A DNA stretch of 64,000 nt, from NCBI GenBank assembly GCA_963717295.1, contig OY970330.1, forward strand, positions 5,227,717 to 5,291,716. The letters run 5' to 3'. Each line of letters begins with the position of its first letter. Positions within the stretch are counted from its first letter, which is position 1. Positions 14,006-60,622 of this stretch are shown piece by piece. The DNA comes from Thermoanaerobaculaceae bacterium. Lineage in GTDB: Bacteria; Acidobacteriota; Thermoanaerobaculia; Multivoradales; UBA5704. The translations under genes and the position numbers were made by a program. The notes beneath the pieces were generated by a model. The model worked only from the letters and a program-made list of their open reading frames with translations, ran no database searches and had not been told where the DNA came from.

Positions 14006-14224
14006 ATGACTCAGTTACTCGAACAGGCATTCACCAAAGCATCGCAGCTTTCTTCCGAAGAGCAGGACACCCTTGCCTCGCTCATCCTAAAAGAGATCGA
14101 AGCCGATCAGCGTTGGGACGACGCCTTCGCAAAGAGCCAGAATTCTCTTTCCCGGTTCGCCGATGAGGCGCTGGCCGAGCATCGGGCGGGCAGGACCAAG
14201 CGGCTCAATGTGGACAATTTGTGA
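14006..14224 (+). CDS. type II antitoxin (addiction-module component paired with a RelE/ParE-family toxin)
   Basis: 72 aa, MTQLLEQAFTKASQLSSEEQDTLASLILKEIEADQRWDDAFAKSQNSLSRFADEALAEHRAGRTKRL is a typical cyanobacterial-type antitoxin. ATGA overlap with the next gene. Confidence 0.6.
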   Translation: MTQLLEQAFTKASQLSSEEQDTLASLILKEIEADQRWDDAFAKSQNSLSRFADEALAEHRAGRTKRLNVDNL

Positions 14225-14490
14225 TTTCCTACACAACGGACGGATTCTGGAAATCTTACAGAAGGCTAACTGAAGCGGTCCGGAAGCAGGCGCGAGAGCG
14301 CTTATCGGCAGTTCGAGAAGAATCCTCATCATCCGAGCCTGCACTTCAAGCGGGTCCACTCAAGCAGACCAATATACTCGGTTCGAGTGAATCTGGATTA
14401 TCGAGCAGTGGGCATAAGAGATGGCGAAGAGATCGTCTGGCACTGGATAGGTCCCCACGACGAATATGAGAAGTTGATCGGACGGATGTA
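14221..14490 (+). pseudogene. RelE/ParE-family toxin with +1 frameshift near 14300-14310
   Basis: Frame 1 gives MISYTTDGFWKSYRRLTEAVRKQARERLSAV. From 14306, frame 2 gives RQFEKNPHHPSLHFKRVHSSRPIYSVRVNLDYRAVGIRDGEEIVWHWIGPHDEYEKLIGRM, the canonical toxin C-terminus. Stop at 14488-14490. Confidence 0.6.
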
Positions 14491-14499
14491 GACGTTGGC

Positions 14500-14830
14500 G
14501 GTTTGCATTGAAGGAGCTCCATACCTTGTCCGGGTCGGAATTGCCAGGATGATACTTGGATGCCTCAGAGAGGGCTTTGCAAGGCCGGCTCGGGGCACAC
14601 CTCCCCCAAGCGAGCACCAGGCTCGGCATGGCCCTCCGGCGGGCGATGAGGCTGTCAAAGAACCTAGCCGCTCCTCTATCCAGCCACGAACGGTAAAGCC
14701 GGCGGGAAGCATCCGGCAGGAAACGGCGCGCGCCGATCTCCTCGCCTCAACCGCTCGGACGCCTCCCGAAAGGCGCCGACGAAGGCGGCATAGATCTCGT
14801 AGAGAATAGGAGCCAGAGTCTTTCGGCCTG
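14500..14830 (-). repeat. copy A (inverted) of a ~260-330 bp module: conserved 3' coding end plus ~100-bp trailer
   Basis: Minus strand encodes ...LYEIYAAFVGAFREASERLRRGDRRAPFPAGCFPPALPFVAG-stop, then trailer ...ggttctttgacag...cgcccgccggagggccatg.... Homologous to 25241-25590 and 25911-26290. The end of one arm of the agtcttctaataagactctggctcc hairpin lies at 14806-14824. Confidence 0.6.
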
Positions 14831-14833
14831 CCG

Positions 14834-15064
14834 ATGACCTCACGCGTGCTGGAATTCGTGCCCAACGAGCGCATTGCCTGGGATGCCAGGGGCCCCGGCG
14901 TTCTCGCCTATCATGCCTGGCTGATCACGCCGACCCCGACCGGCTGTCACGTGCTCACCGAGGAGCGCCAGCACGGTCGCATCGCCTGGCTCCAAAGCGT
15001 CGTACTACCCAACCGGATGCACTACAAACACCAGATCTGGCTCGAAGGGCTGAAGGACAGTTAG
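14834..15064 (+). pseudogene. SRPBCC/polyketide-cyclase-like C-terminal fragment
   Basis: 76-aa ORF ...VPNERIAWDARGPGVLAYHAWLITPTPTGCHVLTEERQHG... resembles the C-terminal half of SRPBCC proteins. No N-terminal half upstream. Confidence 0.4.
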
Positions 15065-15314
15065 GCCGCGGCCTCCCCTTGCCTCGCCCGACGAAAGGTG
15101 CGGCTAAAGGAGAGGCGATCCTTCGGTACCTCGGCCGCGCAGGCGAGCGCCTGCTGGCTCTGGGGATGCTTCCGACACGCGACGGGCGAGAGCCGCCCGT
15201 CGCGCCTCGTCCGATTAGGGGTTGTAGACCCCGCAGACGACCGAGCCGTCGGGGTTGGAAAAAGAGCCAAGCTCTTCTTGGGAGACGATCCAGTCTCTGT
15301 CCTGGCATCCGGCA

Positions 15315-16703
15315 CTATACGGCCGACTCTTTAATAAGTAGCGCATCGCCCCCAACGGTCCGCCATTGAGTCTTGATGAATTGACGAGCGGCGGTTATAA
15401 CTGAGACTGTGATGGCCTTCCGCTGAAGCTTAGCTGCGATACTTGACCACAACTTCCGCATTTGACCGTCTGAGGTTTCATCCAGGCCCATTATTGAAAG
15501 CGCATCAATCGCCTGCTTACAAATATCGACGGCAGCGCTTACGTCGCCTCGTCTCGTGAATGAGCCGACCATATAGATTTGGTCGAGAAAGTAACTCTTA
15601 TTCGATCGTTGCTCAAGATCAGCGGCAATCACTTCGGCAAAGAGCGCGTCCGCTTCCTGAAATCGGCCTAATGCTTCCAATAAGCGTGCTGCTGTAAATC
15701 TCCGCCGAAGCTGCACAAACGGATCGCCGAACTGATCGTATAATCCGGTGAGCGCCTCGAATCTTAACATCGCCTCTCTCTTCAAGCCACGCGTGATTAG
15801 CGCATCAATTCTTATGCTCTCCGCAAACATCAGAAGTCTTTTGTCTGACTCCGGAATCATCTTGTCCGCCTCCGCAAGTATTTCGATTGTGCGATCAGGA
15901 GCTACGTCGAGTAAAACATAAGCCACCTGTATCCTAGCTCTCGCGGCGTACCCGTGCGCACCGACTGCAATGAACTGTCTTGTGGCTTGGCTTAGAAGTT
16001 CCTCGGCTCTTTCGAGTCCACCGCAGTCACCTTCCACGAGTCCTTCAATTGCCATTAACAGCCCCCGGACGAAGCCGTTGCCTGATCCCCGGCGGGCGTT
16101 CTCGTTTCCTTGCTTAAGAGCCTCGCGAGCAGCAATCCACCTCGCCGAACGACGACGAGCACTAGCTAGCTCGGCGAAGCATTCCGCAAGCAAATCCGAT
16201 CTGTGGTCCTCCCTGATAGTGCCGGGTGGGATCTGTTGGCACGCAACCAATGCGAGCCCTACCCATTCTTCCCCCTCGGTCGGAGAGGAGGTAGAGCGAG
16301 CCTCTGAGAGCAGGCCCTTAACAAAGCCAGCATGATGCTTGCCCCTGTCTTTCACAATGGCTTCTCGCCTTGTTCTTCGCTGGGCGCGGCGGACATCGGC
16401 GACGGCAGCGGCAGAGGCTAGAGTCGTCTCCCGATCGGCCTGCTCCAACCGGAACCGCTCCAAAAGGCACCACAATGCTGAGTCCCGTGCCCAGGTCGCA
16501 ATCTTTGAAGACTTAGTTTTGCCGGGACACTTGCCAGCCAAGCGGTCCTCCAGGCCCGACAAAAAATCCTGTGACGCTCTCCAGCAGGCGGCACATGTCA
16601 TTAGGTGGAGCACGAGCTTGGTCTTACCCTCGCTCGGCCCTTCCGACTCCAGGACTTCTAGGTCCATCACCGTTGGATGCCACTCGCTCATTTTAGCGTC
16701 CAC
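15315..16703 (-). CDS. hypothetical protein: N-terminal zf-HC2-like Cys motif plus helical/TPR-like repeat domain
   Basis: 462 aa. HLMTCAACW...CPG motif resembles anti-sigma zinc-finger. The rest is alpha-helical repeats. Lower-GC island. Confidence 0.5.
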   Translation of the reverse strand: MDAKMSEWHPTVMDLEVLESEGPSEGKTKLVLHLMTCAACWRASQDFLSGLEDRLAGKCPGKTKSSKIATWARDSALWCLLERFRLEQADRETTLASAAAVADVRRAQRRTRREAIVKDRGKHHAGFVKGLLSEARSTSSPTEGEEWVGLALVACQQIPPGTIREDHRSDLLAECFAELASARRRSARWIAAREALKQGNENARRGSGNGFVRGLLMAIEGLVEGDCGGLERAEELLSQATRQFIAVGAHGYAARARIQVAYVLLDVAPDRTIEILAEADKMIPESDKRLLMFAESIRIDALITRGLKREAMLRFEALTGLYDQFGDPFVQLRRRFTAARLLEALGRFQEADALFAEVIAADLEQRSNKSYFLDQIYMVGSFTRRGDVSAAVDICKQAIDALSIMGLDETSDGQMRKLWSSIAAKLQRKAITVSVITAARQFIKTQWRTVGGDALLIKESAV

Positions 16704-16814
16704 TTCCTGCCGAGGCTGAGGTCTGCGTAAGTAAGTCTAGCGTGAAATCTACTCCCCATACTATATGAAAAAGCTAGAGCCGCTGGGTCAATTCCGGCGG
16801 CTCTAGTCAGAGGC

Positions 16815-16982
16815 TCAACCCCAGGGGTCCCAACCACTCCCTTGGTCCGAAGTCGGAGCAGGCGGCGCAGGGGGAGCGTTGAGCCCCAAGGGGTCAAGCC
16901 CGCTCCCATGCTTACTGACAACACCGGAGGATAAAGCGTAGGCGAGAAAGACAATAAAGAGAACCGCGAAGCGAACAGACAT
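16815..16982 (-). CDS. small secreted Gly/Pro-rich peptide (55 aa)
   Basis: ATG at 16980-16982 is preceded by GGGAGAAG. MSVRFAVLFIVFLAYALSSG signal peptide then HGSGLDPLGLNAPPAPPAPTSDQGSGWDPWG. Lies between two divergently oriented zf-HC2-like genes. Not in ORF track (too short). Confidence 0.35.
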   Translation of the reverse strand: MSVRFAVLFIVFLAYALSSGVVSKHGSGLDPLGLNAPPAPPAPTSDQGSGWDPWG

Positions 16983-17220
16983 AGCTTCTCCCTTTTTCGG
17001 GGCGCCAGATCAGAGACTCCATTGTCTCGGCAGACACCTCCTACGGAGGAAGTGTGTGCTTCTGAGGGGTAAAAGGACAAGTCAACTCATGGCACCAGAC
17101 TCTTCTACTTTCATCGCGCGCGAACGTTACTCGCCCTCCTGGCCGGCCCAGCCCGCATCTGGGTCGGCCACCATTTTTCCTCTTCCGTGCGTCCGGCTCC
17201 CAGAGCCATAAGGACTACCC

Positions 17221-18288
17221 ATGGAGCATGTCTCTCCTGAAGCCGTCGAAGACTTCCTTGCCTGCCGGCTTTCCCGGGAGGAATCCCGCGCCTTCGTGAG
17301 GCACCTACTTCGGTGCCCGGCCTGCCCTGCTCTTACCTCAGCAAAGACCGCTGCTGCATCCACTTGCCCAGGGAGGGAGTCTCTTCGGCGGCCGGCCTCT
17401 GGGCCGGCCGCCTATTCTTCTGCGTTCCGGCGCGCAATGGAGAGAGTCGCAGAGGTTCTGAGTCTCGATCCCCAGGGAAATGACATCAGGCCCCGGACCC
17501 TCTTGGAATGAGCGCGTCTTCCGAGCATTGCGGGCGAGCAGGGAGGAACTCAAGATCCTGCTCACGGAAGGAGGCATTCCTCCCGGTTCCGCCTACGACT
17601 TCCTTGCAGAGGCAATCGAGTCAGTCTCAAACGACAAATGGTTAATCTGCTCCGATCCGGCTGCGCTCTTGATAGCGACGGTGAAGGCGAGACTTCAGGC
17701 TGGGGAGTCGTCGAATACCCGGACGTCCCAGCCTGGGAAGCGAACGACGCCAGGAAGAAGGAGCAACAACAAGAGGAAGCACGGCGCCAAAGGCTGGCCC
17801 GGAAGGTAGCACGGCTGGCGCTTGCCGTCTTGGGCGAGGGGGAGCGAGAGAGTATTGAGCGGGAGACTGGTCTAGCTTCAGAGGGCGACCTCAGACGCTG
17901 GCTGCGGCGCGCTGCTTACTCTTCATCGTGGCGCGAGTTGATGGGCTCCGTACCGCTTGAAGGACTCCGCTTCGTTTCCTATGAGTCGCTTATCCGTCAC
18001 GCAATAGACAAGCCCGTCCGCTGTTGGTGCGTCGTACTCGACTTCGTGCCGAGTAAGGACGAAGAATACGACTACAACCGAGTTTTGTCTGGCGCTCCGT
18101 GGATCGGGGAAGCCGGAAGCGCCCTGATCGGCGTAATAGATGAACTCCGTAGGCACCGTCGGGCTCTGGTGACATGTCCGTCTGAAAGGGTAGCAAGAGG
18201 GTTGGCATCCACCATCAATCACAAGAAGCGACTCGGAGCCCTGGTCTATGGACCAAGGACGCGGGTCACCGAAGGGGAGAACGGATGA
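17221..18288 (+). pseudogene. disrupted hypothetical gene with zf-HC2-like N-terminus (segments in frames 1,2,1)
   Basis: 17221-17511 (HLLRCPACP...CPG, paralogous to the N-term of 15315-16703), 17480-17809 and 17638-18288 overlap in different frames. 18322-18582 follows after a stop. Confidence 0.3.
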
Positions 18289-18575
18289 GCCATCAAAGGC
18301 TGGCTCCTGAAAAAAAGACGTTTGAGGACAGTTGCTACGATCCTATCGTGCTTACCTGTCTTCGATCACCTCGGAAGCGAGGAAATGATTGGAATGCTGA
18401 CGTTGCTCGCCACCTTGGCTCCGGACGGATCGACGAATGAGCTTCACAAAATCGTGGAGCCTATTGTTATAGCTGCTGCCAAGAGGCCCGACTCGTGGGC
18501 ACTGCTAGAGAGGGTCTGGCCCGAACTGTGCCGCCTGATTGAGGAAGACGATGCCCTCACCAAGGAAGGTAAATC

Positions 18576-18799
18576 ATGGTGAAAGTGGGAAGCTGCATCG
18601 CAGTGCTTCGGATCGTGCGGGGGGGAGCCAGCTCGAATTGGCCCGCAAAGCGGGGATTGCCTCTGGAACCGTCTCGGACTACGAACGGGGCAAGATCTCC
18701 CCTGGGGTCGCGGCGCCGGTGTCGAAAGGAACCAGGCGATTCTTCTGGGGGACGCTGCTCCCAGGAGCCAGCGCGGGACCAGCGCCGCGCCGGTCTTGA
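18576..18799 (+). pseudogene. XRE-family HTH regulator interrupted at a G7 homopolymer (18619-18625)
   Basis: SD AAGGAAGG then ATG. MVKVGSCIAVLRIVRGG in one frame. One extra G would continue as SQLELARKAGIASGTVSDYERGKISP (canonical HTH_XRE) to the stop near 18799. Confidence 0.5.
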
Positions 18800-19020
18800 A
18801 GGATGTCTTCGGCCCCGATCTTTCATCGGCTGGAGCTCCGTTCTCTCCTGATCGTCTCACCCGCGATGCGATGTTGATCGCTCTATTCCCTCTCCCGCGC
18901 GCAGTCGCCAGAAACCCCTGCGACGGACATCTCCGAGCTCATGATCTCTCTCCTCCCAGAGCCGTAACGCCCTCGCGACGCGGGATTCGGTCTTCCGTTT
19001 ACCGCGAAAAGTGAATCCTT

Positions 19021-19200
19021 TGCGGCGATTGACGCACGGTTTGCGGTGATTGACGCTCCCAATGCGAGGGTAACACGACCCATTCTGTTCCGGAGCGGAC
19101 ACATTGCGGCATTGCGTCCGCCCAATGCCGCGTCGAGAGTGTGCATTGGGCGGATAGACATGCTCGGCGTGACGTTGGACGCTCTTATGCGGCGATTGAC
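19021..19200 (+). promoter_or_regulatory. three direct repeats TTGCGG(C/T)GATTGAC(G) upstream of the ADOP permease gene
   Basis: Copies at 19021-19033 and 19042-19054 (21-bp spacing) and 19188-19200. The repeat contains TTGAC. An additional palindrome gcggcattgcg...cccaatgccgc lies at 19106-19135. Confidence 0.35.
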
Positions 19201-19409
19201 AGGAGCTCTCATCACCGCGAAGTGCGCGTTCAATATCTTGATGTGACCCTTCTCACCAGCCAGAAAAGGAGCCAAGCTCTTCTTGCTCGGAAATAACGCT
19301 GGCACCTTTTGCTGGAGCCGGTGTGAACCCGGGGGTTGGGAGAGGCATCCGCACCTCCCCAACCCTGCCAAGGGTGACTCCCTTGGAGGAGAGATAGAAT
19401 TGGCCCACC

Positions 19410-21830
19410 ATGAAAACGGTGGGGCAGGATCTCCGCTTCGGTCTGCGCACTCTCAGCAAGAGCCCGGGCTTCGCCGCCGCCGCGGTCGTCATCCTGGCCT
19501 TGGGAATCGGGACGAACACCGCCATCTTCAGCCTCGTCGACGCCGTGCTGCTGCGGCCGTTGCCTTTCCCTGAGCCCGAACGGCTGATGCGGCTCCAGGT
19601 GGAGTCGCTCGCGCCCGGGAGGAAAGCACTGGGGGTGTCGCCCGCCCGCTACCTCGACTGGCGGGCCGGGAGCCACGCCTTCGCGGCGATGACGGCCTAC
19701 CACGGCACCTCCCTGACCCTGACCGGCAGGCAGGAGCCCGAGGCGCTCACGGCCGCCACCGTCTCGGGCGACCTCTTCTCCGTCCTCGGGGTCCGGCCGC
19801 TCCTCGGCCGGGCCTTCGCGGCCGGGGAAGCGGAGCTGGGCCATGACGACGTCGTGATCCTCTCCCAGTCCCTCTGGCAGAGCCGCTTCGGGGCCGACCC
19901 CAGGGTCCTGGGCCGGGAGCTCGTGCTCGACGGCCGGCGCCACACGGTGGTGGGCGTCCTACCCACCCTCCGGGTGGCATCCTGGTATCCGGCGATGGTC
20001 CAGGTCTGGAAGCCGCTCGCCTGGACCGCCCAGGAGCGCGCGGTGCGCAACGACCCCAACCTGACCGTCGTCGCCCGCCTGAAGCCCGGCGTGGACCGCC
20101 GGCAGGCGCAGGCCGAGATGGAGGCCCTGGCGGCCCGCCTGGCCCGGGAGTATCCCGAGACCGACAAGGGCTGGGGCGTCCTCGTCCGGCCAATCCAGGA
20201 CTACCTGGTGGAGAGGGTGCGCCCGACGCTCCTCCTTCTCCTAGGCGCGGTCGTTTTCGTCCTCCTCATCGCCTGCGCCAACGTGTCCAACCTGGTCCTC
20301 GTGCGGACCCTGGGCCGGAGCAAGGAGATGGCCATCCGCGGCACGCTGGGGGCGAGCCGCGGGCGGCTGGTGCGGCAGCTCGTGGCGGAGGCGCTGCTCC
20401 TCGCCCTGGCCGGCGCCGCCCTGGGCCTCTACCTGGCGCACTTCTTCGTGGCGCTCCTGCGCGGCTTCCTGGGCGATGGGCTCCCCCAAGGGCTGGACGT
20501 CCATCTCGATCTCCGGATTCTCGCTTTCACGCTGGGGATCTCGCTCTTCACCGGGCTCGCGGCCGGCCTGGTGCCGGCCTGGTCCTCCCTGGGCGGCGAT
20601 CCCCAACGGGCGCTCCAGCGCGGCCTCTCGCGGACCGACGCTTCCGCCACCGGCCGCCGCACCCGCGGCGCGCTGGTGGTCGCCGAGGTCGCGCTGTCGC
20701 TCGTCCTCCTCCTGGGCGCGGCGCTGATGATCGAGAGCCTCGGGGCCTTGCGGCACGCCGATCCGGGCTGCGATCCCCATGGCGTGCTGACCCTGGTCCT
20801 CGGCCTCCCCCAGCAGAAGTACCCGGAGCCCCGCCAGCAGAGCGCCTTCTTCGATCGGGTGCGCACGCGCCTCCAGGCCCTGCCGGGGGTCGAGGCCGCC
20901 TCTACGGTCGACTGTCTGCCCCTGACCGAGCCCGGGTTGACCGAACCGGTCGCCATCGCCGGCCGGTCGGCGGGAACCATGGCGGAGCAGCCCGAGGTGG
21001 CGGTGCGTCTGATCTCTCCCGGCTACCTGCGCACCCTGCGCATCGCGCTCCGGCGCGGGCGCGACTTCACCGCCGCGGATGCCCTGGATCGGCCGGCGGT
21101 CGTCCTGATCAGCGAATCCATGGCCCGGCGTTTCTGGCCCGGCCAGGATCCTCTGGGACAGCGGCTGATCCTCGGGCTCGCCCCGAAGGTCCCGCAGGAG
21201 GTCGTGGGCGTGGTCGCCGACGTCAAGGTGGACGGTCTGCGGGTCGCCGAGCCGGTCGCGACCGTCTATCAGCCGTTGGCCCAGAGGCCATGGCCCGCGA
21301 CGACGATCGTAGTGCGCGCCAGGACGCGTCCCGAGAGCCTGGTTCCGGCGGTCAGCCGCGCCATCCATGAGGAAGACCGGGACCTGCCGTTGCTGGAGGT
21401 CGCGACGCTGGATTCCGTCGTCGCCGGGTATCTCTCGCGGGAACGCTTCAACATGCTGCTCCTCTCCGTCTTCGCCGCCCTCGCGCTGCTCCTGGCGGCG
21501 GTGGGGATTTACAGCGTGCTCTCCTATACGGTCGGCCGGCGGGTGCAGGAGATCGGCGTCCGCATGGCGCTCGGGGCGCAGGTCAAAGATGTGCTCCGCC
21601 TGGTGGTGGTCGAGGGGATGCGGCCGACTCTCCTGGGCATCCTCGTCGGCTCCGCCGCCGCCCTGGCCCTCGGCCGCGCGCTCGCCAGCCTCTTCTACGG
21701 AGTGAGCGCGACGGACCCGCTTCTCTGCGGGGCGGTGGCGCTGCTCCTGGCCGGCGTGGCCCTTCTGGCGATCGCCGGCCCGGCCTGGCGGGCGGCGCGG
21801 GTGCCGCCCAGCGAGGCACTCCGGGAGTAG
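19410..21830 (+). CDS. ADOP-family ABC transporter permease (duplicated FtsX/MacB-type, Acidobacterial duplicated orphan permease)
   Basis: 806 aa, [54 protein letters not shown]-terminus, two FtsX permease halves each with a large periplasmic domain. Confidence 0.85.
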
Positions 21831-21860
21831 GAGTGGGGGTGGGGGTGGGAGTGGGGGTGG
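21831..21860 (+). repeat. G-rich hexamer repeat (GTGGGG/GTGGGA)x5 immediately after the permease stop
   Basis: gagtgggggtgggggtgggagtgggggtgg. G-quadruplex-capable. Confidence 0.5.
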
Positions 21861-21967
21861 CGATCCTTGAAAATCCTCAAGTCAACGGTCGCGACCCTGG
21901 ACGGTGGCCGGCACGATCACATCGAGGCCCGGCGGCCGCGAAGAGGCGGCGTTTGGCCCGAGAGGGA

Positions 21968-23374
21968 TTACTGGAAGTAGCCGGTGACGTCGAGGAGCAA
22001 CTGGAGAGGGCGGGAGCTTGTGGTGTTCTTCACCGCGAGGGTGCCGGTGCCGGAGGAGGCGAGCATGAGGACGGCGTTATTGGCGCGGGTCTGGCCGGTG
22101 GCGAAGCTCAGAGTCGAGGTGTTGGGAACCAGGGCGTTGCCAGGGAAAAAGACGACGGCGCCGGTCTGCGGTGCCCCGACCACGGTGACGTTGACCGCCA
22201 CCGCCTTGGCGGTGGCCGGGATGCCGCAACGCCCGGTCACCGTGATCACCCGCTGGCTGCCCGGCGGCAGGGGCGGGCCGCCATAGGGACCGCTCGCGTT
22301 GCGGGTGTCCAGGATCCGGCAGGGGGTCACGGTATAGAGCTTGCCCGGCCCGGCCGAGGTGGCGACCGCCGGCTGCCAGCCGAGCTGGACCACCTCGAAG
22401 TCGCTCGCTTTGAGGCTGCCGAAGGCCGGATTCAGGACGCCGTTGTCCCAGCGCGGGTCGTAGACCCCCTGAATGTACATGTCACTGCCGTTGTCGGCGA
22501 CGATCAGGCCATAGGTCTTCATCGCCTGGAAAATCTTCTGCACGTAGGCGGGGAAGCCCGAGATGTCCTTGCCGGCCTTGAGGCGCAGGCGGGTCCCCAT
22601 GGGCAGCGCCCCGACGGTCGAGCCGGCATCGTGCGAGGCGGGGTAGACGTAGTGGTAGGTCGAGCGCACCGTGAAGCGGAAGGCGTGGCGGATGGGATTG
22701 GGGCCGAAAGCCTCGTCGTAGCGGATGAGGCCGGGGAGGATGGCCAGCCCCGCGGCGTCGGCGCTGGTCCAGGTGTCGGGCCGCCGGGCGTTGCCGTCCA
22801 AGGAGAAGATGGCCCCCGACCCCGCCTCCCAGTGATCGACGTTCCAGTGGGTATGATAAAGCTCGTAGAGAATACGGTTGTCGCGGTCGACGATCAGCAT
22901 GTGGTGATCGCCGGAGGACCCGCCGCCCGGGTCGCCGCTCTCGATCCACTTGCCCTGCGTCCGCGCCGCGACCGGGATGGGGTAGCCCCCCGGCCGCCCA
23001 GGGGCGCCGTGGTCGCTCTGGTCGTCGAACTCGACGAAGGTCACCGTCTCGAGCGCCTGGGTGCCAGGCACGGAGGAGTAGGGGAAGCCGTAGATGTCGG
23101 TCGAGTTGGGGTCCCCTGGACTGACGTCACCCCCGAAGTCGGGATGGAGCCCCCGGGTCGAGCCGATGAAGCTGATGAAGCTGGCGCTGCTCGGGTCGAG
23201 CGGAGCGCCGCTTACGTCGACGTTCCACCAGTTGTCCGGCGGAAAGAGGGGAGAAAGGGCCGAAAGATCCGGTTGCTGCAGGATCTGAGCCGAGGCGGAG
23301 GCCGCGAGCAGCACGAAGACAAAGATGAAGCGGATGCTTCGGATGGCGACGCTCGACCGCAAGCTCGCGGACAT
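21968..23374 (-). CDS. secreted hypothetical protein with C-terminal beta-sandwich-like domain
   Basis: 468 aa with signal peptide. The C-terminal ~110 aa (PCRILDTR...VAVNVTVVGAPQTGAVVFFPGNA...DVTGYF) is a recurring domain seen at the ends of secreted proteins. Confidence 0.55.
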   Translation of the reverse strand: MSASLRSSVAIRSIRFIFVFVLLAASASAQILQQPDLSALSPLFPPDNWWNVDVSGAPLDPSSASFISFIGSTRGLHPDFGGDVSPGDPNSTDIYGFPYSSVPGTQALETVTFVEFDDQSDHGAPGRPGGYPIPVAARTQGKWIESGDPGGGSSGDHHMLIVDRDNRILYELYHTHWNVDHWEAGSGAIFSLDGNARRPDTWTSADAAGLAILPGLIRYDEAFGPNPIRHAFRFTVRSTYHYVYPASHDAGSTVGALPMGTRLRLKAGKDISGFPAYVQKIFQAMKTYGLIVADNGSDMYIQGVYDPRWDNGVLNPAFGSLKASDFEVVQLGWQPAVATSAGPGKLYTVTPCRILDTRNASGPYGGPPLPPGSQRVITVTGRCGIPATAKAVAVNVTVVGAPQTGAVVFFPGNALVPNTSTLSFATGQTRANNAVLMLASSGTGTLAVKNTTSSRPLQLLLDVTGYFQ

Positions 23375-23495
23375 GGAAACCCTCCCCAGGACATTCTCCT
23401 ATTGAAGACAGCGTATGTTAGCACGGGCGTGGGGGTCTTGCGCGTCTCTCGGACCCTAGGTGACCCCAGGCGCGGGCTTTCCCTGGGCGCCATTC

Positions 23496-23849
23496 TCATT
23501 CCTTGCGCCGATAAACCCAGGCCTTCAGCGCCTCCAGATTCAGGGGCTCGGGAGCGTCGAGGCGTATGGGCCTTACGCAGATGTCATGATCCGGAAAGCT
23601 CGCCGCGACCTCGCCCTCGATGTCCATGGATGTTTCAAATTCATCATCTCCGATTTCGCCGTCAAAAAAGAGATTGGCCCAGATGCTTCTATCCTCCCAG
23701 CCCACGGTTACGCCCCGAAGATGGCTGGTGACCATCCCAAGCAGTGAAACCTGAAACGCGAGGAGCACTCCTTGCCGAAAATCTACGTCCTCATCCGTCA
23801 TTCGATGACCTCCAGGTCCCAGGGCCGCGCCCGGTTTCCAAAATGCCAC
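23496..23849 (-). CDS. acidic hypothetical protein (likely start at 23801, MTDEDVD...)
   Basis: ~100-aa acidic ORF (FFDGEIGDDEFETSMDIEGE) in lower-GC island. No recognisable domain. Confidence 0.3.
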   Translation of the reverse strand: MAFWKPGAALGPGGHRMTDEDVDFRQGVLLAFQVSLLGMVTSHLRGVTVGWEDRSIWANLFFDGEIGDDEFETSMDIEGEVAASFPDHDICVRPIRLDAPEPLNLEALKAWVYRRKE

Positions 23850-23956
23850 TCTGCATCCGGAAACTGATCGAGTGCGTCATTGAGAATGCTCTCGACTATG
23901 GCTCATGGGCGCGACCTCAAGCCCGTCAACAGCTCGTACACAGAGCTCCACTCCCC

Positions 23957-24110
23957 TTACCTTAGCGCGGCAAGGCCCAACTGAATCGCGTTTTCGACGG
24001 TTTCATACTCCTCTTCGGCATCGAACTCCGGGTGTCCGCCACCCTGCCGCCCTCCACGGAAACGATGACGTAGTGTAGGACAATCCCGGCCACGCGTGCT
24101 CGCGGTCGAC
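23957..24110 (-). pseudogene. 3' fragment of a JAMM/MPN (Mec+-like) gene, paralogous to 34574-35038
   Basis: ~83 bp (24038-24120) nearly identical to 34661-34743 and encoding ..YVIVSVEGGRVADTR... A divergent, frame-shifted C-terminus (PEFDAEEEYETVENAIQLG versus RERFEEEEIVSG) follows. Confidence 0.5.
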
Positions 24111-24401
24111 GGAATCGAGCTGATGGATCCGGGCAAGCGCCGCGACCGGTTGACCGTCTGGCTGGCAGGTGAGCTTCCGGCACGGTTCGCCGGGCGCATT
24201 CTCGACGTCGACTCTCGCATTGCCGACGCCTGGGGAGTCGTCATGGCTCGTGGACAAAAAGCTGGACTGAATCTGAGATCCATGGACGCCTTCTTCGCAG
24301 CCACCGCGGAGGTCCACCGGTTGACACTGGTTACCCGCAATGTCGAGCACTTCAAAGAGTTGGGCACTCCTCTCGTGAATCCGTGGCAAGGAAGCTCATA
24401 A
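24111..24401 (+). pseudogene. VapC (PIN-domain toxin) C-terminal two-thirds, no N-terminus and no vapB
   Basis: GIELMDPGKRRDRLTVWLAGELPARFAGRILDVDSRIADAWGVVMARGQKAGLNLRSMDAFFAATAEVHRLTLVTRNVEHFKELGTPLVNPW aligns to VapC residues ~45-130. Directly abuts the JAMM fragment. Confidence 0.55.
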
Positions 24402-24408
24402 CAGGGAC

Positions 24409-24924
24409 ATGAGGCTGGCCCAAAAAATTCAGTCGTTCGCCGACCGGAGCGATGCCTTGTTGGACGAGCTGGAGGCGATGGAGCCCGGCAAGCTCCACGC
24501 CAGGCCTCTGCCGGGAAAGTGGACCATCCTGGAGATCGTCGAGCACATCGTCCTGGCGGAACGGGTGGTCCTCCAAGGGCTCCCCGAGCCCTCCCAGCTT
24601 CAGGCCGTCAAGCCCGGCCTGAAGGACCGCGTCCGCTATCTGCTCGTCCTGTTCGTCTTGAGGGCCAACATCCCTGTGGGAGTCGGCTCCCCGGCAGGCA
24701 ACCGGGACCTGGCCGAGCTTCGCGGCCTCTGGAACGAAGACAAGGCCTGGGTGTTGGCCTACGTCACCCGCTTCGGATCCCGGGGTCTCAAAAGAGCCAT
24801 CCTGCACCACCCCGTGACCGGCCCGATCAACGTCAAGCAAGCCATCACTCTGAGCCGAGCCCACCTCGACCGGCACATCCGTCAAATCCGAAGGCTTCAG
24901 CGGCTTACCACACCAGTCTTCTAA
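24409..24924 (+). CDS. DinB/YfiT-like (DinB_2) putative metal-dependent hydrolase
   Basis: 171 aa with the DinB_2 pattern GKWTILEIVEHIVLAER. The ORF ends ...LQRLTTPVF immediately before the hairpin agtcttctaataagact (24914-24935). Confidence 0.55.
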   Translation: MRLAQKIQSFADRSDALLDELEAMEPGKLHARPLPGKWTILEIVEHIVLAERVVLQGLPEPSQLQAVKPGLKDRVRYLLVLFVLRANIPVGVGSPAGNRDLAELRGLWNEDKAWVLAYVTRFGSRGLKRAILHHPVTGPINVKQAITLSRAHLDRHIRQIRRLQRLTTPVF

Positions 24925-24960
24925 TAAGACTCTGGCTCCCTACGCTAAGCTGCCCCTCAG

Positions 24961-25235
24961 ATATCTGGGGATGACGGCTCGTATCCATAGATACGGTCCA
25001 TATCTGGGAACGATGGCTCATATCCACAGATACGGCCCATATCCCCGGATGACAGTCCATCATCTCCAGACACGCGGCATATCTGGGGATGACAGCTCGT
25101 ATCCACAGATACAATCCACATCTCGGGGCGATGGCTCATATCCCCAGATACGGCCCATATCCGCGGATGACAGGCCATCATCTCCAGATACGCGGCATAT
25201 CTGGGGATGATGGCGTATATCCCCAGACAATGGCC
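24961..25235 (+). repeat. tandem array of seven 39-40-bp degenerate repeats (organised as a ~118-bp unit x2.3)
   Basis: Units ATATCTGGGGATGACGGCTCGTATCCATAGATACGGTCC / ...GGGAACGATGGCTCATATCCACAGATACGGCCC / ATATCCCCGGATGACAGTCCATCATCTCCAGACACGCGGC repeat in the same order. Contiguous, with no unique spacers. Confidence 0.75.
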
Positions 25236-25240
25236 AAATC

Positions 25241-26290
25241 GCACGCCGCTACCAAAGCCGCGCGCAGAGCGTTCTACGAAATCTACGCCGCCTTCGTCGG
25301 CGCCTTCCGGGAGGCGTCCGAGCGGTTGAGGCGAGGAGAGCGGGGCGCGCCGTTTCCTGCCGGATGCTTCCCGCCGGCTTTACCGTTTGTGGCTGGCTAG
25401 AGGGAGCGGGACAAGGTTCTTTGACAGTCGCATTGCCCGCTGGAGGGGCCATGTCGCTGAGCTCGGTTGCTCGCTTAGGGAAAAGTGTGCCCTTTTCACC
25501 CATGAAGAATCGTTCTCAGAGGCTTTGGCCGCCAGTTTGTTTGCCCGACGGCCTCCAAGAAAACGCGGCCTACCACGCCTACAGCGGCCTACCACGCCAG
25601 TCTTCTAATAAGACTCTGGCTCCTATTTCGGCGCAACCGACAACTTGGAGTTTGCCGCCCGCCTTCGCGGTAAAGATGTCGGACCGATTCGCTATGCCAC
25701 GGTCGAGACGGTAACTTTTTCTCCCATACCTTGCTGGGCCCATCTGTCGCCTGAAGTCTATCGGGCCCGGAACGTGGAGATGGTCGAATCCATCGAGGCC
25801 GAAGCTGCGCGGGAAAGAGAACGCACCGGCGCCTGCGTGCTCGGAGCCAAAGCCATTCTTGCCAGCGATCCGCTCCATCGCCCATCCTCCTTGGCCCGAT
25901 CGCCAGCACCTTGCGTCCACGCCGCCACAAAGGCTGCAAGGAGAGCGTTCTACGAAATCTACGCCGCTTTCGTCGGGGCCTTTCGGGAGGCGTCAGAGCG
26001 TCTGAGGCGCGGCGACCGCAACGCACCCTTCCCCGCCGGCAGCTTCCCGCCAGCCCTACCTTTCGTCGCTGGATAGAGGCATCGCCGATGCTCTTTGACA
26101 GTTTCACCGCCCACCGGAGGGCCAGATTCCGAGGCGAAGGCCCGCGAAAGGGGGAACGTGTATCCGGTCAGGCTCTCTTGAGAGGTTTCCAGAGCACCAA
26201 ACTGCCCCCGGCCAAGTTTCGAACCAGCCCAATGGGGCTGGCCTTCAGGAAGTCACTGGCACTTGTTTGGCCGGGCCTGCAGCGGACGGC
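25241..26290 (+). repeat. copies B (25241-25590) and C (25911-26290) of the conserved 3'-coding module plus trailer, separated by a second copy of the hairpin repeat (25591-25622)
   Basis: Both encode ...AATKAARRAFYEIYAAFVGAFREASERLRRG(E/D)R.APFPAG.FPPALPFVAG-stop. DNA differences between copies are mostly synonymous. Copy C retains ~90 upstream codons (MEFAARLRGKDVGPIRYATVETVTFSPIPCW...). Confidence 0.6.
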
Positions 26291-27247: not shown

Positions 27248-28306
27248 CTAGCCCACAGAGCCGAGCCTTCGCATCCACCCTTCAAGTAAGGCATCGTACG
27301 TCATGATTGTGATTCCATTGAGGCTGTTATTCATCTCGTCGAGCCGGATTCGATCACCAAGTGAAAGGTCCGCTCGTCTGCCGGCTATTATTCTGAAAGA
27401 GCAAGACAACCGCTCATGCATTACGCTGCTCAACATCTCGGAATATAAGCCAGAGAGGCTTCTCGTTGATCTTATTTTTCTCGACGCTGCTAGATCTTCC
27501 GTCATGAAGGACTCCACCGTGTGCCTGAAGTACTCGCCATTGCGCGAATGCCATGCCTTCCAGTCTTGAACCTGTCGGAGAGCATGCGTTAAAACCGCCG
27601 CAGGATCGCCTGCTTTCGTAAAGAGCTTACGCGACGGTTTCTCCAGCTCTATCAAGGTCGCGTGGATTCCCACGTCGTTTGTCCAAGTGCGATAGCCAAG
27701 CACCACAAAGTCCGTGACGAAGCTGTTTCCTAAGGGACACTTACTGAGAGCATATCCTCCTTCGTAGAATAGATCTAGAAGAAATGCGTTTGACCATAGA
27801 AATCTGTGAACTTCTTCTTCTGAGCCTTGCAAGCAACGATCAAGCTCCATGAGTACGGACCTGATGCGACGAGCGCTGGCCGTCTCCTCGTCCTCCATCT
27901 CGTCGAGGTAGGTGACCATATCGCCCGCAGCTTTAGATGTGATGTGTTGCATGTACCGACGCTTACGCGGCCGATTATCGAGCACATCGTCGGACCAAAC
28001 GGCGATTTTTACATCCTCCCTCGAACCGCCACTCGGTAAATAAGAATCAAGCAGACGCCCCCTCGATACTAGGCAATATGAATCGATCACTCTGACGTCG
28101 TAGGCGCGACACAACAGCGGGCTGTCCTCGATGTAAGCGATGAAGAACGACCATCTTATGCGCATCAACTCGGCTAAGCGGCGGTTCGTTGACTCGTGGA
28201 GGGAAGATGTACGTCGCTCGGTGAAGAAGATAAGCGCCGTCTCCACATCTTCCAGTTGGGTTTCAAAGGTCGCGTCGTTCAGCACTTTGAATTCGGTTAG
28301 AGTCAC
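27248..28306 (-). CDS. Shedu-like protein (DUF4263 PD-(D/E)xK nuclease domain)
   Basis: 352 aa, GTG start 28304-28306. C-terminal core ...GNSFVTDFVVLGYRTWTNDVGIHATLIELEKPSRKLFTKAGDPAAVLTHALRQVQDWKAW matches the DUF4263 pattern (D...E-x-K...Q..W). Confidence 0.6.
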   Translation of the reverse strand: MTLTEFKVLNDATFETQLEDVETALIFFTERRTSSLHESTNRRLAELMRIRWSFFIAYIEDSPLLCRAYDVRVIDSYCLVSRGRLLDSYLPSGGSREDVKIAVWSDDVLDNRPRKRRYMQHITSKAAGDMVTYLDEMEDEETASARRIRSVLMELDRCLQGSEEEVHRFLWSNAFLLDLFYEGGYALSKCPLGNSFVTDFVVLGYRTWTNDVGIHATLIELEKPSRKLFTKAGDPAAVLTHALRQVQDWKAWHSRNGEYFRHTVESFMTEDLAASRKIRSTRSLSGLYSEMLSSVMHERLSCSFRIIAGRRADLSLGDRIRLDEMNNSLNGITIMTYDALLEGWMRRLGSVG

Positions 28307-29517: not shown

Positions 29518-30098
29518 GGTGTGTGCTAGCGACGTTCAACCTTTAGCTGATCTTATGCGCACCACTCAAGAATGCTTATCGGCGGCCTATCAGGCCGCCT
29601 GAATCTCAAATATGTAGACTCTAAACTGTTCAATCCATTCGGCTTAGATTTTACGCCGATTTCTTAGGCTCGTCAATGCGGCGGCGATCCGTCGTGTGGG
29701 CATCCGGGGCAGCCTTTACGTAGTACTCCATCAAGGATCGTCCTAACTCGTTGAAAGGATGAGACTCAGGCTGGCTTTAGTCGGATAGGCCGACCCGCAA
29801 AAGGCGCTTAGGCGACGGCGCTATACATTCCAGGGCGAGGCGGGAGCGAAGACGGAAGCCATTTATTTCTAGCAGCTTGGAGCGAAGGATGGCGAATAGG
29901 TCGAGGGTGTCGTATAGGTCCGAAGCGGTCGGCTAAGCAGGGCGCTCAAGGAACGCTAAGTACTCCCCACCGTAAGTCACCTGACATATCCTGCCGGAGG
30001 AGTCGGCCGGTGACCCAGCCTATCAGCGAGCATCCTCGACTTCCTTCTCTCTTCGATACCCACGTCCCGGGGACAGACTGACCGTCACGCCGGGCCAA

Positions 30099-30312
30099 AG
30101 GTCCGTGATCCCTCAGCCCAGGCCAACGGCCTGGGTACGCAGACCCCTTGTCGCATAGGGGCGCCCCAACGGGGCGCGATACTTGGCCCCGCACCACGGA
30201 CCCTTGCCGGCAGCCGAATCGATGTCGATGAGGTATCGCGACCCTTCAGGCCGCCTCTGCGGATCGTCTCCCGAACCCAGGCCGTTGGCCTGGGCTCAGG
30301 AATCACGGCCCC
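30099..30312. repeat. MITE-like element: ~48-bp inverted repeats each containing the hairpin cccaggcc-aacg-ggcctggg, flanking ~115 bp
   Basis: 30099-30147 ggtccgtgatccctcagcccaggccaacggcctgggtacgcagacc versus reverse complement of 30262-30312. An internal hairpin gcgcccc-aacg-gggcgc is also present. Confidence 0.45.
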
Positions 30313-30409
30313 TTGGGCCGGCGTGGCACCAGCGCCGACGCGAGTCATCAACCTTTGCGACGATGGAGGCGAGACCCAGGAGGGGCCGGCTGGGGCGGTC
30401 TTGCGGGTC

Positions 30410-30449
30410 TCCCCTCTTCTCCCGGGGGTGGGAAGCCGGGAGAAGAGGG
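30410..30449 (-). terminator. strong hairpin cccctcttctcccgg-gggtgggaag-ccgggagaagagggg 3' of htpG
   Basis: 15-bp perfect stem 17 nt after the htpG stop. Member of a 3-copy hairpin family (also at 55040-55078 and 57722-57775, all ending in GTGATGAGG). Confidence 0.5.
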
Positions 30450-30465
30450 GTAGGAGTGATGAGGC

Positions 30466-32418
30466 TTACGCCCCCCGAACCATCAAATCAGCCACCGCCT
30501 TGTTGAAGCGCACGGGGTCGGGCAGCTCGCCGCCCTCGGCGATGAGGCCGTAGCCGAAGAGGAGCTGGGCGTAGTCTTCGAGCACCGGATCGTCGGCGTT
30601 CTTCTCGAAGTGCTCGCTCATCTTGGCCAGGATGTCGTGCTTCGGGTTGAGCTCCAGGATGCGGCGCTGCTTCGGGCCGCCTCCCTTGCCCTTCTGGAGG
30701 AGCTTTTCGAGCTGCGGGCTGTAGTCGTGCTCGGCGCCCACCAGGCAGACCGGCGAGCTCGTGAGACGGCTGGTGAGGCGCACCTGCTTGACCCAGGTGT
30801 CGAGCTTCTTCTGCAAGGCCTCGAGCAGCGGCTTCAACTCCTCCTCCTTGGCCTTCAGCTCCTCCTCGGTCTGCTTCTTCTCCTCCTCGTTGCCGAGCGA
30901 GACCGTGCCCTTGCCCGCCGACTTCAGCTTCTTGCCGCCGTACTCGTTGAGCGACTGGGTGAGCAGCTCGTCCACCGTGTCCACCAGGTAGAGCACCTCG
31001 TAGCCCTTTTCCTTGAAGGCTTCGAGGTTGGGCGAATTCTCCACCTGCGAGCGCGTCTCGCCCGTCAGGTAATAGATCTCGTTCTGCCCTTCCTTCATCC
31101 GCTCGACGTACTCCTTGAGCGAGGTGAGCTTCTCGGGATCGTTCGACGACTCGAAGACCAGCAGCTCCAGCAGCTTCTCCTTGTTCTCGTAGTCCGCGCT
31201 GGTGCCCTCCTTGATGGCGCGGCCGAACTCGCCCCAGAACTTGAGGTAGGTCTCCGGCTCCTTCTCCTTCATATCGGTGAGGACGTCGAGGATCTTCTTG
31301 GTCAACCCCTTGCGGATGAGGGTGATGAAGCGGTCCTGCTGCAACATCTCGCGGGAGACGTTGAGCGCCAGGTCGGGGGAGTCGACGACGCCGCGCACGA
31401 AGCGCAGATACTGCGGGAGCAGGTCCTCGCACTTCTCCAGGATCTGGATGCGCTTGACGTAGAGCTGAAGGCCGGGCTTCGAGGCCACGTAATAGAGGTC
31501 GTACGGCGCCTGCGCCGGGATGAACAGCAGGGCCTGATACTCGATGCGTCCCTCGGCCTTGTAGGAGATGACCTTGAGCGGCTCCGTCCAGTCGTGGGCG
31601 ATGTGCTTGTAGAACTCGTTGTAGTCCTCGGGCTTCACCTCGGACTGCGGCCGGGTCCAGATCGGCTTCATCGTGTTGAGAGTCTTCTCTTCCAGCGGCA
31701 TGACGGGTTTCTCGCCCGTCTCCTTCTCCTTGGCGAGATCCTCCATCTCCGGGTCCTTCTCGGCCTTGAGGATGATCGGGTAGCTGACGAAGTCCGAGTA
31801 GCGGCGGACGATGCGGCTGATCACCCAGCGGTCGGAGAAGTCGTCGAGGCCGTTCTCCTTGTCCTCGGCCTTGAGGTAGAGGGTGACGGAGGTGCCGCGG
31901 GCGGCTTTCTCGGTCTCCTCCACGGTATAGGTGCCGTCGCCGGTGGACTCCCAGCGGGTGGCGGCGGTCTCGCCCGCGCGGCGGGTCACCAGCACGACGC
32001 GCTCGGCGGCCATGAAGGAGGAGTAGAAGCCGACGCCGAACTGGCCGATCAGCTCCGCGATCGACTGCTGCGACTCGCCCTTCTTCATGCGGTCCACCAG
32101 CTCGCGGGTGCCGGACTTCGCGATGGTGCCGATGTTGGCGATGACCTCGTCGCGGCTCATGCCGATGCCGTTGTCGTTAATGGTGAGGGTGCGCAGGTTG
32201 CGGTCCGCCTCAATGCGGATCTGAAGCTCATCTCCGCCTTCGAGCAGCTCGGGATGAGTCAGCGCCTCGAACCGCAGCCGGTCGATCGCGTCGGACGCGT
32301 TCGAGATCAGCTCGCGCAGGAAGATTTCCTTGTTCGAGTACAACGAATGGATCATCAGGTCGAGGAGCTGCCGGGTTTCGGCCTGGAACTGCAGGGTCTC
32401 GACGGTAGCGGTAGCCAT
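30466..32418 (-). CDS. htpG: molecular chaperone HtpG (Hsp90)
   Basis: 650 aa, N-terminus MATATVETLQFQAETRQLLDLMIHSLYSNKEIFLRELISNASDA matches the HATPase_c GHKL fold. Confidence 0.9.
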   Translation of the reverse strand: MATATVETLQFQAETRQLLDLMIHSLYSNKEIFLRELISNASDAIDRLRFEALTHPELLEGGDELQIRIEADRNLRTLTINDNGIGMSRDEVIANIGTIAKSGTRELVDRMKKGESQQSIAELIGQFGVGFYSSFMAAERVVLVTRRAGETAATRWESTGDGTYTVEETEKAARGTSVTLYLKAEDKENGLDDFSDRWVISRIVRRYSDFVSYPIILKAEKDPEMEDLAKEKETGEKPVMPLEEKTLNTMKPIWTRPQSEVKPEDYNEFYKHIAHDWTEPLKVISYKAEGRIEYQALLFIPAQAPYDLYYVASKPGLQLYVKRIQILEKCEDLLPQYLRFVRGVVDSPDLALNVSREMLQQDRFITLIRKGLTKKILDVLTDMKEKEPETYLKFWGEFGRAIKEGTSADYENKEKLLELLVFESSNDPEKLTSLKEYVERMKEGQNEIYYLTGETRSQVENSPNLEAFKEKGYEVLYLVDTVDELLTQSLNEYGGKKLKSAGKGTVSLGNEEEKKQTEEELKAKEEELKPLLEALQKKLDTWVKQVRLTSRLTSSPVCLVGAEHDYSPQLEKLLQKGKGGGPKQRRILELNPKHDILAKMSEHFEKNADDPVLEDYAQLLFGYGLIAEGGELPDPVRFNKAVADLMVRGA

Positions 32419-32636
32419 GAATGTCCTCCTGGGTCTTCAAGATCTCGGGCCCAATTGCACAGAAGACGCAGGGCCACGGTTTGACCCTTCGAACGCTACG
32501 CACTGGGCTGGGAATTCCCCCTGGCCGGCCTCCGATGCGGAAGTCTGACGGCAGGGGCATCAAGCAAATATTAGTCAACGACGCGCAGGATTGCAAGCTG
32601 CGTAAGCCTGTAAGATCCTGAGAGAGGGAGGACGCG

Positions 32637-33140
32637 ATGGCCTGGGGACGAAAACGAGAAGGTGGCGGAGGATGCGTGGGCCTGCTGGCCCTGCTGCTGG
32701 CGGTCGTGGCTTTGGTGGTGGCCTGGGCGGCGTACAAGCGCACGGGCGGCGAGCTGGGGACAGTGTTGAAGGACGCGGGAGTCGAGAGCCGCGGCGCGGC
32801 CGGAGCCGACTCGGATCTCGCGGAATGGCGGGAGGATCTGGCCCAGGCCCGCGACCGGCTCCTGGGCCGCCGGGCCGAGGTGGCGGGGGACCGCAACCTG
32901 GATCAGGTACGCCGCGACGTGGAGCAGGTGCGGACCAGCCTGGAGCAGGCGTATCGCAAGGCCGGCGACAAGGCCGGTGCCGCGAAGGAGGAGTGGAAGG
33001 ATCTCGACGCCGATCTTCAGCGACTGGAGGGGCAACTCAAGGACGGCGGCTCCAAGGCCCTGGCCTCCCTCGACAAGGCGATCTCGAAGCTCCGCGACGC
33101 CACGAGCCCCAAGAAGGACGAGGAAGATCGCCGCCGCTGA
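32637..33140 (+). CDS. hypothetical membrane-anchored coiled-coil protein
   Basis: 167 aa, one TM helix (LLALLLAVVALVVAWAA) then charged helical region. Confidence 0.4.
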   Translation: MAWGRKREGGGGCVGLLALLLAVVALVVAWAAYKRTGGELGTVLKDAGVESRGAAGADSDLAEWREDLAQARDRLLGRRAEVAGDRNLDQVRRDVEQVRTSLEQAYRKAGDKAGAAKEEWKDLDADLQRLEGQLKDGGSKALASLDKAISKLRDATSPKKDEEDRRR

Positions 33141-33146
33141 CCTCCC

Positions 33147-41643: not shown

Positions 41644-41661
41644 TCCCTCACCCCCGGCCCT

Positions 41662-43020: not shown

Positions 43021-43051
43021 GCTTTTGAGGCCTCGCTGCGGGGCGAGGCGA

Positions 43052-43146
<95 letters not shown>

Positions 43147-60583: not shown

Positions 60584-60622
60584 AGGCGTCGCCGGAGCTT
60601 CCGCCGGCGTCTTTTGTCCTCC

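Follow-up and report, generated by a model that had tools for sequence, protein, structure and literature searches.

The 64-kb stretch of Thermoanaerobaculaceae bacterium contig OY970330.1 considered here (hereafter the window, on whose numbering all coordinates are given) contains three diverged copies, A, B, and C, of a module in which the last 41–55 codons of one reading frame and a noncoding trailer are held in common. Copy A extends over 14493–14822 on the reverse strand; copies B (25242–25630) and C (25634–26272) stand one behind the other on the forward strand. All three encode the peptide ...YEIYAAFVGAFREASERLRRG.R.APFPAG.FPPALPFVAG-stop. The modules are 5′-truncated remnants of an element resembling an insertion sequence (IS) with a RayT-like transposase gene, and their truncations probably arose from cleavage by the transposase at the element end.

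At the first locus the order is the stop codon of a ParE/RelE-like gene, the right end of copy A, its 41 codons, a terminal motif (14804–14822), and a truncated gene. The coding remnant of copy A (14679–14803, reverse strand; stop codon 14676–14678) comprises the last 41 codons, approximately residues 268–308, of a Y1 transposase gene. Its trailer, or right end (14493–14675, reverse strand), retains the CTCTTTGACAG block, hairpins 1 and 2, and the GGTGTGCCC block, and closes with a degenerate terminal motif that abuts the ParE/RelE-like stop codon; the motif at 14804–14822 (AAGACTCTGGCTCCTATTC, reverse strand) lies directly 5′ of the truncation point. At the second locus, a DinB_2 gene is followed by a 45-nucleotide (nt) right-end remnant, a 21-nt spacer, a tandem array of 20-nt units, copy B, and copy C, all remnants being on the forward strand. 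Copy B keeps approximately residues 257–308 (25242–25397; stop codon 25398–25400) and a complete right end (25401–25630) with the terminal motif AGTCTTCTAATAAGACTCTGGCTCCTATTTCGG at its end (25599–25630), and copy C keeps approximately residues 161–308 (25634–26073; stop codon 26074–26076) and a complete right end (26077–26272) that finishes in the motif variant AAGTCACTGGCACTTGTTTGG (~26250–26272). The 45-nt remnant (24895–24939) is of the B type, includes the terminal motif, and is 93% identical to 25579–25623. The DinB_2 gene, whose domain ends at residue 160 of 171, runs into this remnant at its 3′ end and takes from it the last ~9 codons and the stop.

A first-pass annotation, made from the letters of the window, had located the three copies as they are given here, and repeat and open reading frame (ORF) analysis agrees with it: A and B, on complementary strands, are 95% identical over 131 nt, and either is 80–82% identical to C. 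The annotation put the trailer at ~100 bp, which proved to be ~200 nt, and included neither the motif variant at the end of copy C nor the fourth piece at 24895–24939. It also associated a small hairpin repeat with each copy. Exact copies of this 25-nt repeat, AGTCTTCTAATAAGACTCTGGCTCC, stand at 24915 and 25599; at 14809–14822 (reverse strand) there is its 3′ half, AAGACTCTGGCTCC, and by chance no copy of either would be expected. The repeat is thus real, but it is the terminal motif of the right end rather than an independent repeat, and its hairpin is not conserved in other copies. The left-end sequence of the element was sought in the whole window and not found.

Nucleotide homology to full-length genes begins at 14803 in copy A, at 25242 in copy B (directly after the array), and at 25634 in copy C. 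On the full-length protein, tblastn places A at residues 255–308, B at 245–308, and C at 158–308; in family alignments the corresponding spans are ~268–308, ~254–308, and ~158–308. Substitution counts by the Nei–Gojobori method place most differences at the third codon position: 6 of 7 between A and B (five synonymous and two nonsynonymous changes; dN/dS, or omega, 0.13), 19 of 24 between A and C (omega 0.024), and 29 of 40 between B and C (omega 0.062, with a synonymous divergence, dS, of ~1.5). With omega at 0.02–0.13 and this third-position bias, the earlier proposal of mostly synonymous differences under amino-acid-level constraint is borne out. Since the synonymous divergence of A and B (dS 0.17) equals the divergence of their trailers (13–18%), their high coding identity reflects amino acid constraint and not recent copying. 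No frameshift or internal stop occurs in any of the three copies; copy C retains all of the family's invariant and near-invariant residues over ~161–308, and a single departure, S298C, is common to A and B. To judge from this shared substitution, A and B represent one paralogue lineage and C another. The dN/dS values indicate that the copies were cut from at least two long-diverged functional paralogue lineages rather than copied as dead fragments, and by the same sequence comparison the source paralogues evolved under purifying selection while they were intact.

Pfam and NCBIfam searches with the window fragments returned no match, and the family was recognised only through its full-length homologues. 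Copy C has 227 homologues, with phmmer E-values down to 1e-81, and a longer homologue as query led to many proteins of 305–308 amino acids that carry PF01797 (Y1_Tnp). All of these full-length proteins come from Thermoanaerobaculia or Acidobacteriota, and their database names are 'REP element-mobilizing transposase RayT', 'REP-associated tyrosine transposase', and 'transposase' (REP, repetitive extragenic palindromic). Over its whole length, copy C can be aligned with residues ~158–308 of the 305–308-residue proteins, in keeping with the view that the modules are ends of once-functional paralogous genes. The motifs SSHVHLLL (HUH) and RYVLxQ (tyrosine) are conserved in 104 full-length homologues, and a family profile run against the Protein Data Bank matches ISDra2 TnpA, aligning to its HVHLLL and to YIESQ with the catalytic tyrosine; the window fragments themselves lack the HUH and tyrosine part. 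An AlphaFold2 model of the parent protein (predicted local distance difference test score, pLDDT, 85.7) has as its top Foldseek matches TnpA_REP (4er8), ISDra2, IS200, and IS608, all of them in the N-terminal half only, with E-values of 4e-5 to 2e-4 against 4er8, 2xma, 2xm3, and 2f4f. Motif, Pfam, and fold alike assign the parent protein to the Y1 HUH transposase superfamily, and the earlier surmise that the modules might be the C-terminal end of a transposase is sustained by this N-terminal half of the homologues.

The remainder of the protein, residues ~148–308, is an extra domain of ~160 amino acids that matches no Pfam family. Within it, the module common to A, B, and C is predicted to consist of one long helix (253–286) and a disordered, near-invariant tail, FPxGSFPPALPFV. 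The domain is widespread, with 1,845 representative clusters at E ≤ 1e-3 and 836 at E ≤ 1e-10, and the proteins that carry it are typically 305–320 amino acids long. One metagenome protein (P0001) repeats its GHWF...EAA segment internally.

The parent gene is present in multiple copies. The window's own contig (8,777,251 bp) holds at least four intact paralogues (P0125, P0130, P0133, P0248) and a fragment (P0013), and a scan of genome contigs yielded 371 relatives. In the metagenome-assembled genome DASUEN, at least nine copies at 80–93% nucleotide identity are alike over ~45–110 nt upstream and ~160–200 nt downstream of the ORF. The parent is an IS-like element of ~1.2–1.35 kb, common in Thermoanaerobaculia, and is laid out as a short left end, a 924-nt gene (306–308 amino acids), a noncoding right end of ~200 nt, and a terminal motif of ~20 nt in one to three copies. 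Its left end, upstream of the start codon, has a conserved GTTGTAAGACGCGAGCCCGTTTTTCCGTCTTTATAGGGCATG with a hairpin, AAGACG/CGTCTT. A terminal motif immediately precedes several of the full copies and most of the truncated ones. The suggestion that the window modules are mobile-element remnants accords with these findings, as the parent genes are repeated within genomes, the window's own included, where intact paralogues are present, and are not single-copy housekeeping genes. Plasmid searches with the transposase gave no match. At one locus (L004, 3001–3198), residues 1–66 are found directly upstream of a full gene.

At most loci, including those whose proteins are 52–65% identical to the query, the trailer follows directly after the stop codon, and its blocks run in the order CTCTTTGACAG, hairpin 1, hairpin 2, GGAGGTGTGYCC, a variable ~100 nt, and the terminal motif (consensus TTCCAAAAAGACnCTGGC(A/T)CCT(A/G)TTC); the right end closes with AAGACnCTGGCnCCTaTTC. 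Hairpin 1 (GCCC...GGGC) is 96.7% paired, with compensatory changes at three of its four pairs (GC to AU, CG to UA), and hairpin 2 (CGAGC...GCTCG) has variants such as GAGTT/AACTC and GGAGCT/AGCTCC. The covariation is modest, at 16 double-change cells versus 8.9 in shuffles, a value reached in 3 of 500 shuffles. A long-range pairing of the GGAGGTGTGCCC block with the terminal CTGGCACCT was rejected by eye, as CTGGCTCCT variants break it without compensation.

The terminal motif, ~20 nt long and quasi-palindromic (AAGAGCCTGGCTCTT), lies 188–200 nt past the stop codon in close relatives and 230–265 nt past it in distant ones. It is matched 149 times in 569 kb of loci, compared with ~12 times in shuffled sequence, and 66 of these matches are at right ends. 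Another copy stands 50–165 nt upstream of the start codon, inverted in ~17 loci and direct in ~15. Because the B-type motif folds as a hairpin (z = -3.9) and the C-type does not (z = 0.37), it is the motif sequence, and not the hairpin, that is conserved. The right end would be conserved as a cis-acting end recognised by the transposase. No promoter-like or terminator-like site was found in the trailers; their TTGACA might have served as a -35 box, but this was rejected, there being no -10 element and no hit in a promoter scan. An Rfam scan of 13.5–27.5 kb (E up to 1) left the trailers unmatched and gave only noise, from microRNA models, inside the palindromic array. No tnpB or iscB ORF lies beside the copies.

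The remnants are of an ordinary sort; what is informative about them is the manner of truncation. In all three window copies the right end survives whole or almost whole, and the 5′ part has been lost, at codon ~267 (A), ~257 (B), or ~161 (C). Counting the window and the other loci together, ~18 copies lack the 5′ part and retain residue ~308, and in 12–13 of these ~18 the homology starts 4–15 nt past the CTGGCnCCT of a terminal motif. Independent full copies cease to resemble each other at this same point, which identifies the position of the junction as the element end. The internal breakpoints span codon 97 to ~301. Some coincide, at ORF nucleotides 753/766/769/772 (four loci, copy B among them), 822/823, and 480/484, with weak statistics from a biased sample; internal CTGG-like pseudo-motifs are found at inconsistent distances from them.

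Several partial copies have a close neighbour. At eight loci (L002, L004, L007, L031, L046, L062, L072, L078) the partial copy has its nearest match, at 88–97%, in the full copy beside it and is far less like the other copies of the same genome. On this pattern of sequence similarity, such partial copies appear to have arisen by local, partial tandem duplication with the right end as the fixed point. Shorter duplicates consist of the last eight codons and the trailer (L009) or of the trailer alone (L006), and the motif alone is repeated two or three times at L013, L018, L024, L034, and L057.

A single type of event could produce these configurations. The transposase would nick the DNA at a terminal motif, which is the element end and would also be a preferred insertion site; template switching, or else resection followed by rejoining, would then connect the cut end to a point inside an adjacent or sister copy. 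The product would be either a partial tandem duplicate or a 5′-deleted copy, the right end being retained in every case. This nick-and-rejoin model fits copies A and C. For the tandem pair of copies B and C, a second element would have inserted beside the right end of the first, with subsequent loss of 5′ sequence. A further possibility, that the tandem copies are rolling-circle concatemers, was rejected, as the partial copy usually comes after the full copy, the reverse of the order expected.

A number of observations weigh against an origin in transposase cleavage. Microhomology, a sequence signature, or a cleavage-site signature was sought at the internal breakpoints, and none was found. 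Copy B adjoins the 20-nt array and not a terminal motif, and since B and C are only 80% identical they are not products of local duplication, so that the duplication model alone fails for the window's tandem pair. The loci were retrieved by peptide patterns taken from the C-terminal module, which biases the census of truncated copies. The modest hairpin covariation seems to fit structure in single-stranded DNA or in RNA equally well. Paired empty and filled sites were sought and none was recovered, the related contigs L084 and L087 (92–93% identical) being rearranged at these loci; we thus infer mobility from copy number and conserved ends only.

Some of these same observations would be expected if the copies had simply decayed. 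By that account, the modules are dead IS fragments shaped by unrelated deletions, their adjacency to motifs comes only from neighbouring insertions, and the transposase is uninvolved. The unmarked internal breakpoints, the junction of copy B with an unrelated array, and the existence of N-terminal and internal fragments (L003, residues 1–66 at L004, L006, L053) are all in its favour. However, random deletions would scatter, whereas in 12–13 independent cases the left junction is no more than ~10 nt from one and the same position, the element end; the internal breakpoints cluster across genomes at the coincident positions listed above, and the partial copies were duplicated locally from the full copy beside them. 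We consider ordinary random decay unlikely for these reasons, and cleavage at the element end remains the preferred explanation.

The 20-nt array bears on a further alternative. It occupies 24961–25240 and consists of ~14 units of ~20 nt, with periods of 39 and 118 in Tandem Repeats Finder and a quasi-palindromic core, TATC-N4-GATA; its predicted fold is more stable than those of shuffled sequence (z = -3.6). The first-pass annotation had a 39-bp array in the place of the upstream part of copy B. It does directly precede copy B, but it belongs to an unrelated repeat family and is no part of the transposon. Similar arrays of 8–16 units occur at L018 (5810–6110), where the array is intergenic and 1.9 kb from a transposase copy, and in seven of seven metagenome contigs matching a unit pattern. 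The array family (window, L018, L080–L086) has the consensus CATATCCnnnGAyAACGGCC and is intergenic in Thermoanaerobaculia-like soil contigs. Only the array of the window and that of L084 (a contig 93% identical to the window genome) have a transposon motif beside them, and as the other arrays lack the motif, the array is an independent repeat family that in this lineage lies between motif copies. The L084 array, 94% identical to 24927–25238 of the window, is in another genomic context and without module B; it is followed by the motif-like sequence AAAATCGCCTGGCTCCC and so lies between two motif-like sequences. Plasmid and Rfam searches with the array yielded no plasmid match and no Rfam family. 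The array could be a set of protein-binding sites.

Such motif-bounded DNA might instead be mobilised in trans by intact transposases. In this interpretation the 3′ module with its trailer, or foreign DNA such as the array, forms a nonautonomous cassette comparable to REP doublets forming hairpins (REPINs), miniature inverted-repeat transposable elements (MITEs), or palindrome-associated transposable elements (PATEs). It would make sense of the motifs on both sides of full-length genes, often inverted on the left as in REPtrons, of the differently placed L084 array between its two motif-like sequences, of solitary motifs near a synteny breakpoint, and of the recurrence of units of ~330–380 nt. 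Against these stand the resemblance of partial copies to the neighbouring full copy and not to each other, with no spreading family of mini-elements seen, the absence of the left-end hairpin from the window copies, the arrays of the 20-nt family that adjoin no motif, and the count of only ~3 solitary motifs in the 64 kb. Taken together, these points leave trans-mobilised cassettes decidedly improbable.

That the modules have kept a function, with the C-terminal module expressed as a small protein (such as a transposition inhibitor or a partner-binding peptide) and/or the trailer acting as a structured RNA, is very unlikely: the intact frames of all copies with the invariant residues of copy C, the A–B omega of 0.13, and trailer blocks and hairpins conserved in distant relatives speak for it, but no Shine-Dalgarno or promoter-like site was found upstream of the remnant ORFs, the trailers have neither promoter nor terminator and no Rfam match, and the constraint is fully explained by divergence of intact paralogues, still present in this genome, before truncation.

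The element from which the remnants derive combines traits of several known systems. With the IS200/IS605 elements (IS608, ISDra2, IS200) it shares the Y1 HUH core, the Y---Q signature as in class 1 (PMC6006769), a multi-copy state, a single transposase gene between conserved noncoding ends with small hairpins, and, apparently, insertion beside a short specific sequence. It differs from them in having a protein twice as long, owing to the C-terminal domain of ~160 amino acids, in a right end of ~200 nt instead of under 100 nt, in the lack of tnpB, and in ends that carry a quasi-palindromic motif of ~20 nt rather than a well-defined subterminal hairpin.

REPtrons are RayT (TnpA_REP) genes flanked by REP sequences (Bertels 2017, PMC5581495; Messing 2012, PMC3479197; Nunvar 2010, PMC2817692), and RayTs are typically single-copy and vertically inherited (PMC5581495). 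The best structural match (TnpA_REP, 4er8), the RayT database names, and the short motifs that flank the gene, often inverted and in several copies, are REPtron-like. Unlike REPtrons, the family here has 4–9 or more diverged copies per genome and many fragments, and its motif shows no conserved hairpin and no high-copy dispersal within 64 kb; scores against NCBIfam NF047646 (REP_Tyr_transpos), at 20.6–28.9 bits, fall below the cut-off of 80. Class 3 TnpA_Y1 proteins, reported from Planctomycetes and Acidobacteria, have been described as intermediate between IS and REPtron, with the signature Y----Q together with NHVH and a mean length of ~178 amino acids (Quentin et al. 2018, PMC6006769). The present family resembles them in its Acidobacteria-related phylum, its mixed IS and REPtron traits, several related genes per genome, and atypical flanking structures, and departs from the description of that class in having Y---Q (YVLxQ), SHVH, and 306 amino acids.

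MITEs and PATEs differ from the window copies, which lack a left end, only the terminal motif preceding A and C; TnpB/IscB omega-RNA systems differ in that the trailer here has no Rfam match and no adjacent tnpB or iscB. Rolling-circle HUH elements (IS91, ISCR, Helitrons) have Y2 or Rep-helicase transposases and leave one-ended or truncated copies. The likeness to them would lie in one constant and one variable end and in partial copies in tandem. Taken as a whole, the finding brings to light no new kind of system: the mobile element behind the remnants is of a known kind, of which it is an uncharacterised member.

The surroundings of the remnants have features of their own. A solitary terminal motif, CCAAGAAGAGCTTGGCTCTTTTTC, lies between genes at 15257–15284 (reverse strand; weak profile match), and two adjacent motif copies in opposite orientation occupy 19259–19312 (weak profile matches), 80 nt from the point at which synteny with a related contig breaks. 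This breakpoint is the left one at a gene for a MacB/FtsX-type ABC permease (19390–21884), which is 92% identical to L087 9982–12459 with entirely different flanks on both sides. Upstream of the permease gene, T(C/G)yTTTGCGGyGATTGAC occurs three times (19016, 19037, 19183), and these could be operator-like repeats. The truncated gene beside copy A is an ORF of 76 amino acids (14834–15064, forward strand) that resembles the C-terminal half of a larger protein and has no Pfam match; it lacks the 5′ half precisely from the point at which copy A and the motif begin. A 21/42-nt tandem repeat, CCTCCCGCCGGCAGCGGCGAA, is present in five copies at 60618–60727 (Tandem Repeats Finder).

Genes related to defence or addiction stand around the remnants at 27251–28306 (reverse strand), 24096–24401 (forward), and 14006–14492 (forward), and encode, respectively, a Shedu SduA_C-domain protein, a PIN-domain toxin, and an antitoxin-like ORF with a ParE/RelE-like toxin, apparently frameshifted. 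These neighbours suggest a variable defence island. In the 93%-identical L084 (1–11799), the window segments 24927–25238, 29537–33558, and 41661–43173 are reordered and reoriented, and ~6 kb is unique to that contig. By these rearrangements, this part of the chromosome is a rearrangement hotspot.

What is most interesting about these remnants is that truncation and duplication are both anchored at the right end, a pattern whose origin in transposase nicks we infer. In a wider and rather doubtful reading, the element would be an uncharacterised IS–REPtron intermediate in which nicks at the motif drive right-end-anchored duplications and deletions and might also rearrange segments bounded by the motif, among them foreign DNA like the array, which lies in another context in L084. 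If this were true, recombination would be concentrated at the terminal motif in the variable, defence-rich parts of Thermoanaerobaculia genomes. An interaction with the beta-clamp is known for IS608 TnpA (PMC5027513), and by analogy one may speculate that the invariant disordered C-terminal tail could tether the transposase to the replisome. For annotation, the finding means that 'hypothetical proteins' of 98–240 amino acids, numerous in soil metagenomes, are pseudogene fragments of one transposase family. For transposon biology, it presents a Y1 HUH core combined with a large domain outside Pfam and a long structured right end. The scars themselves, each with a precise junction at the element end and a variable internal breakpoint, would be a natural record of single-strand nicking by a transposase gone wrong.

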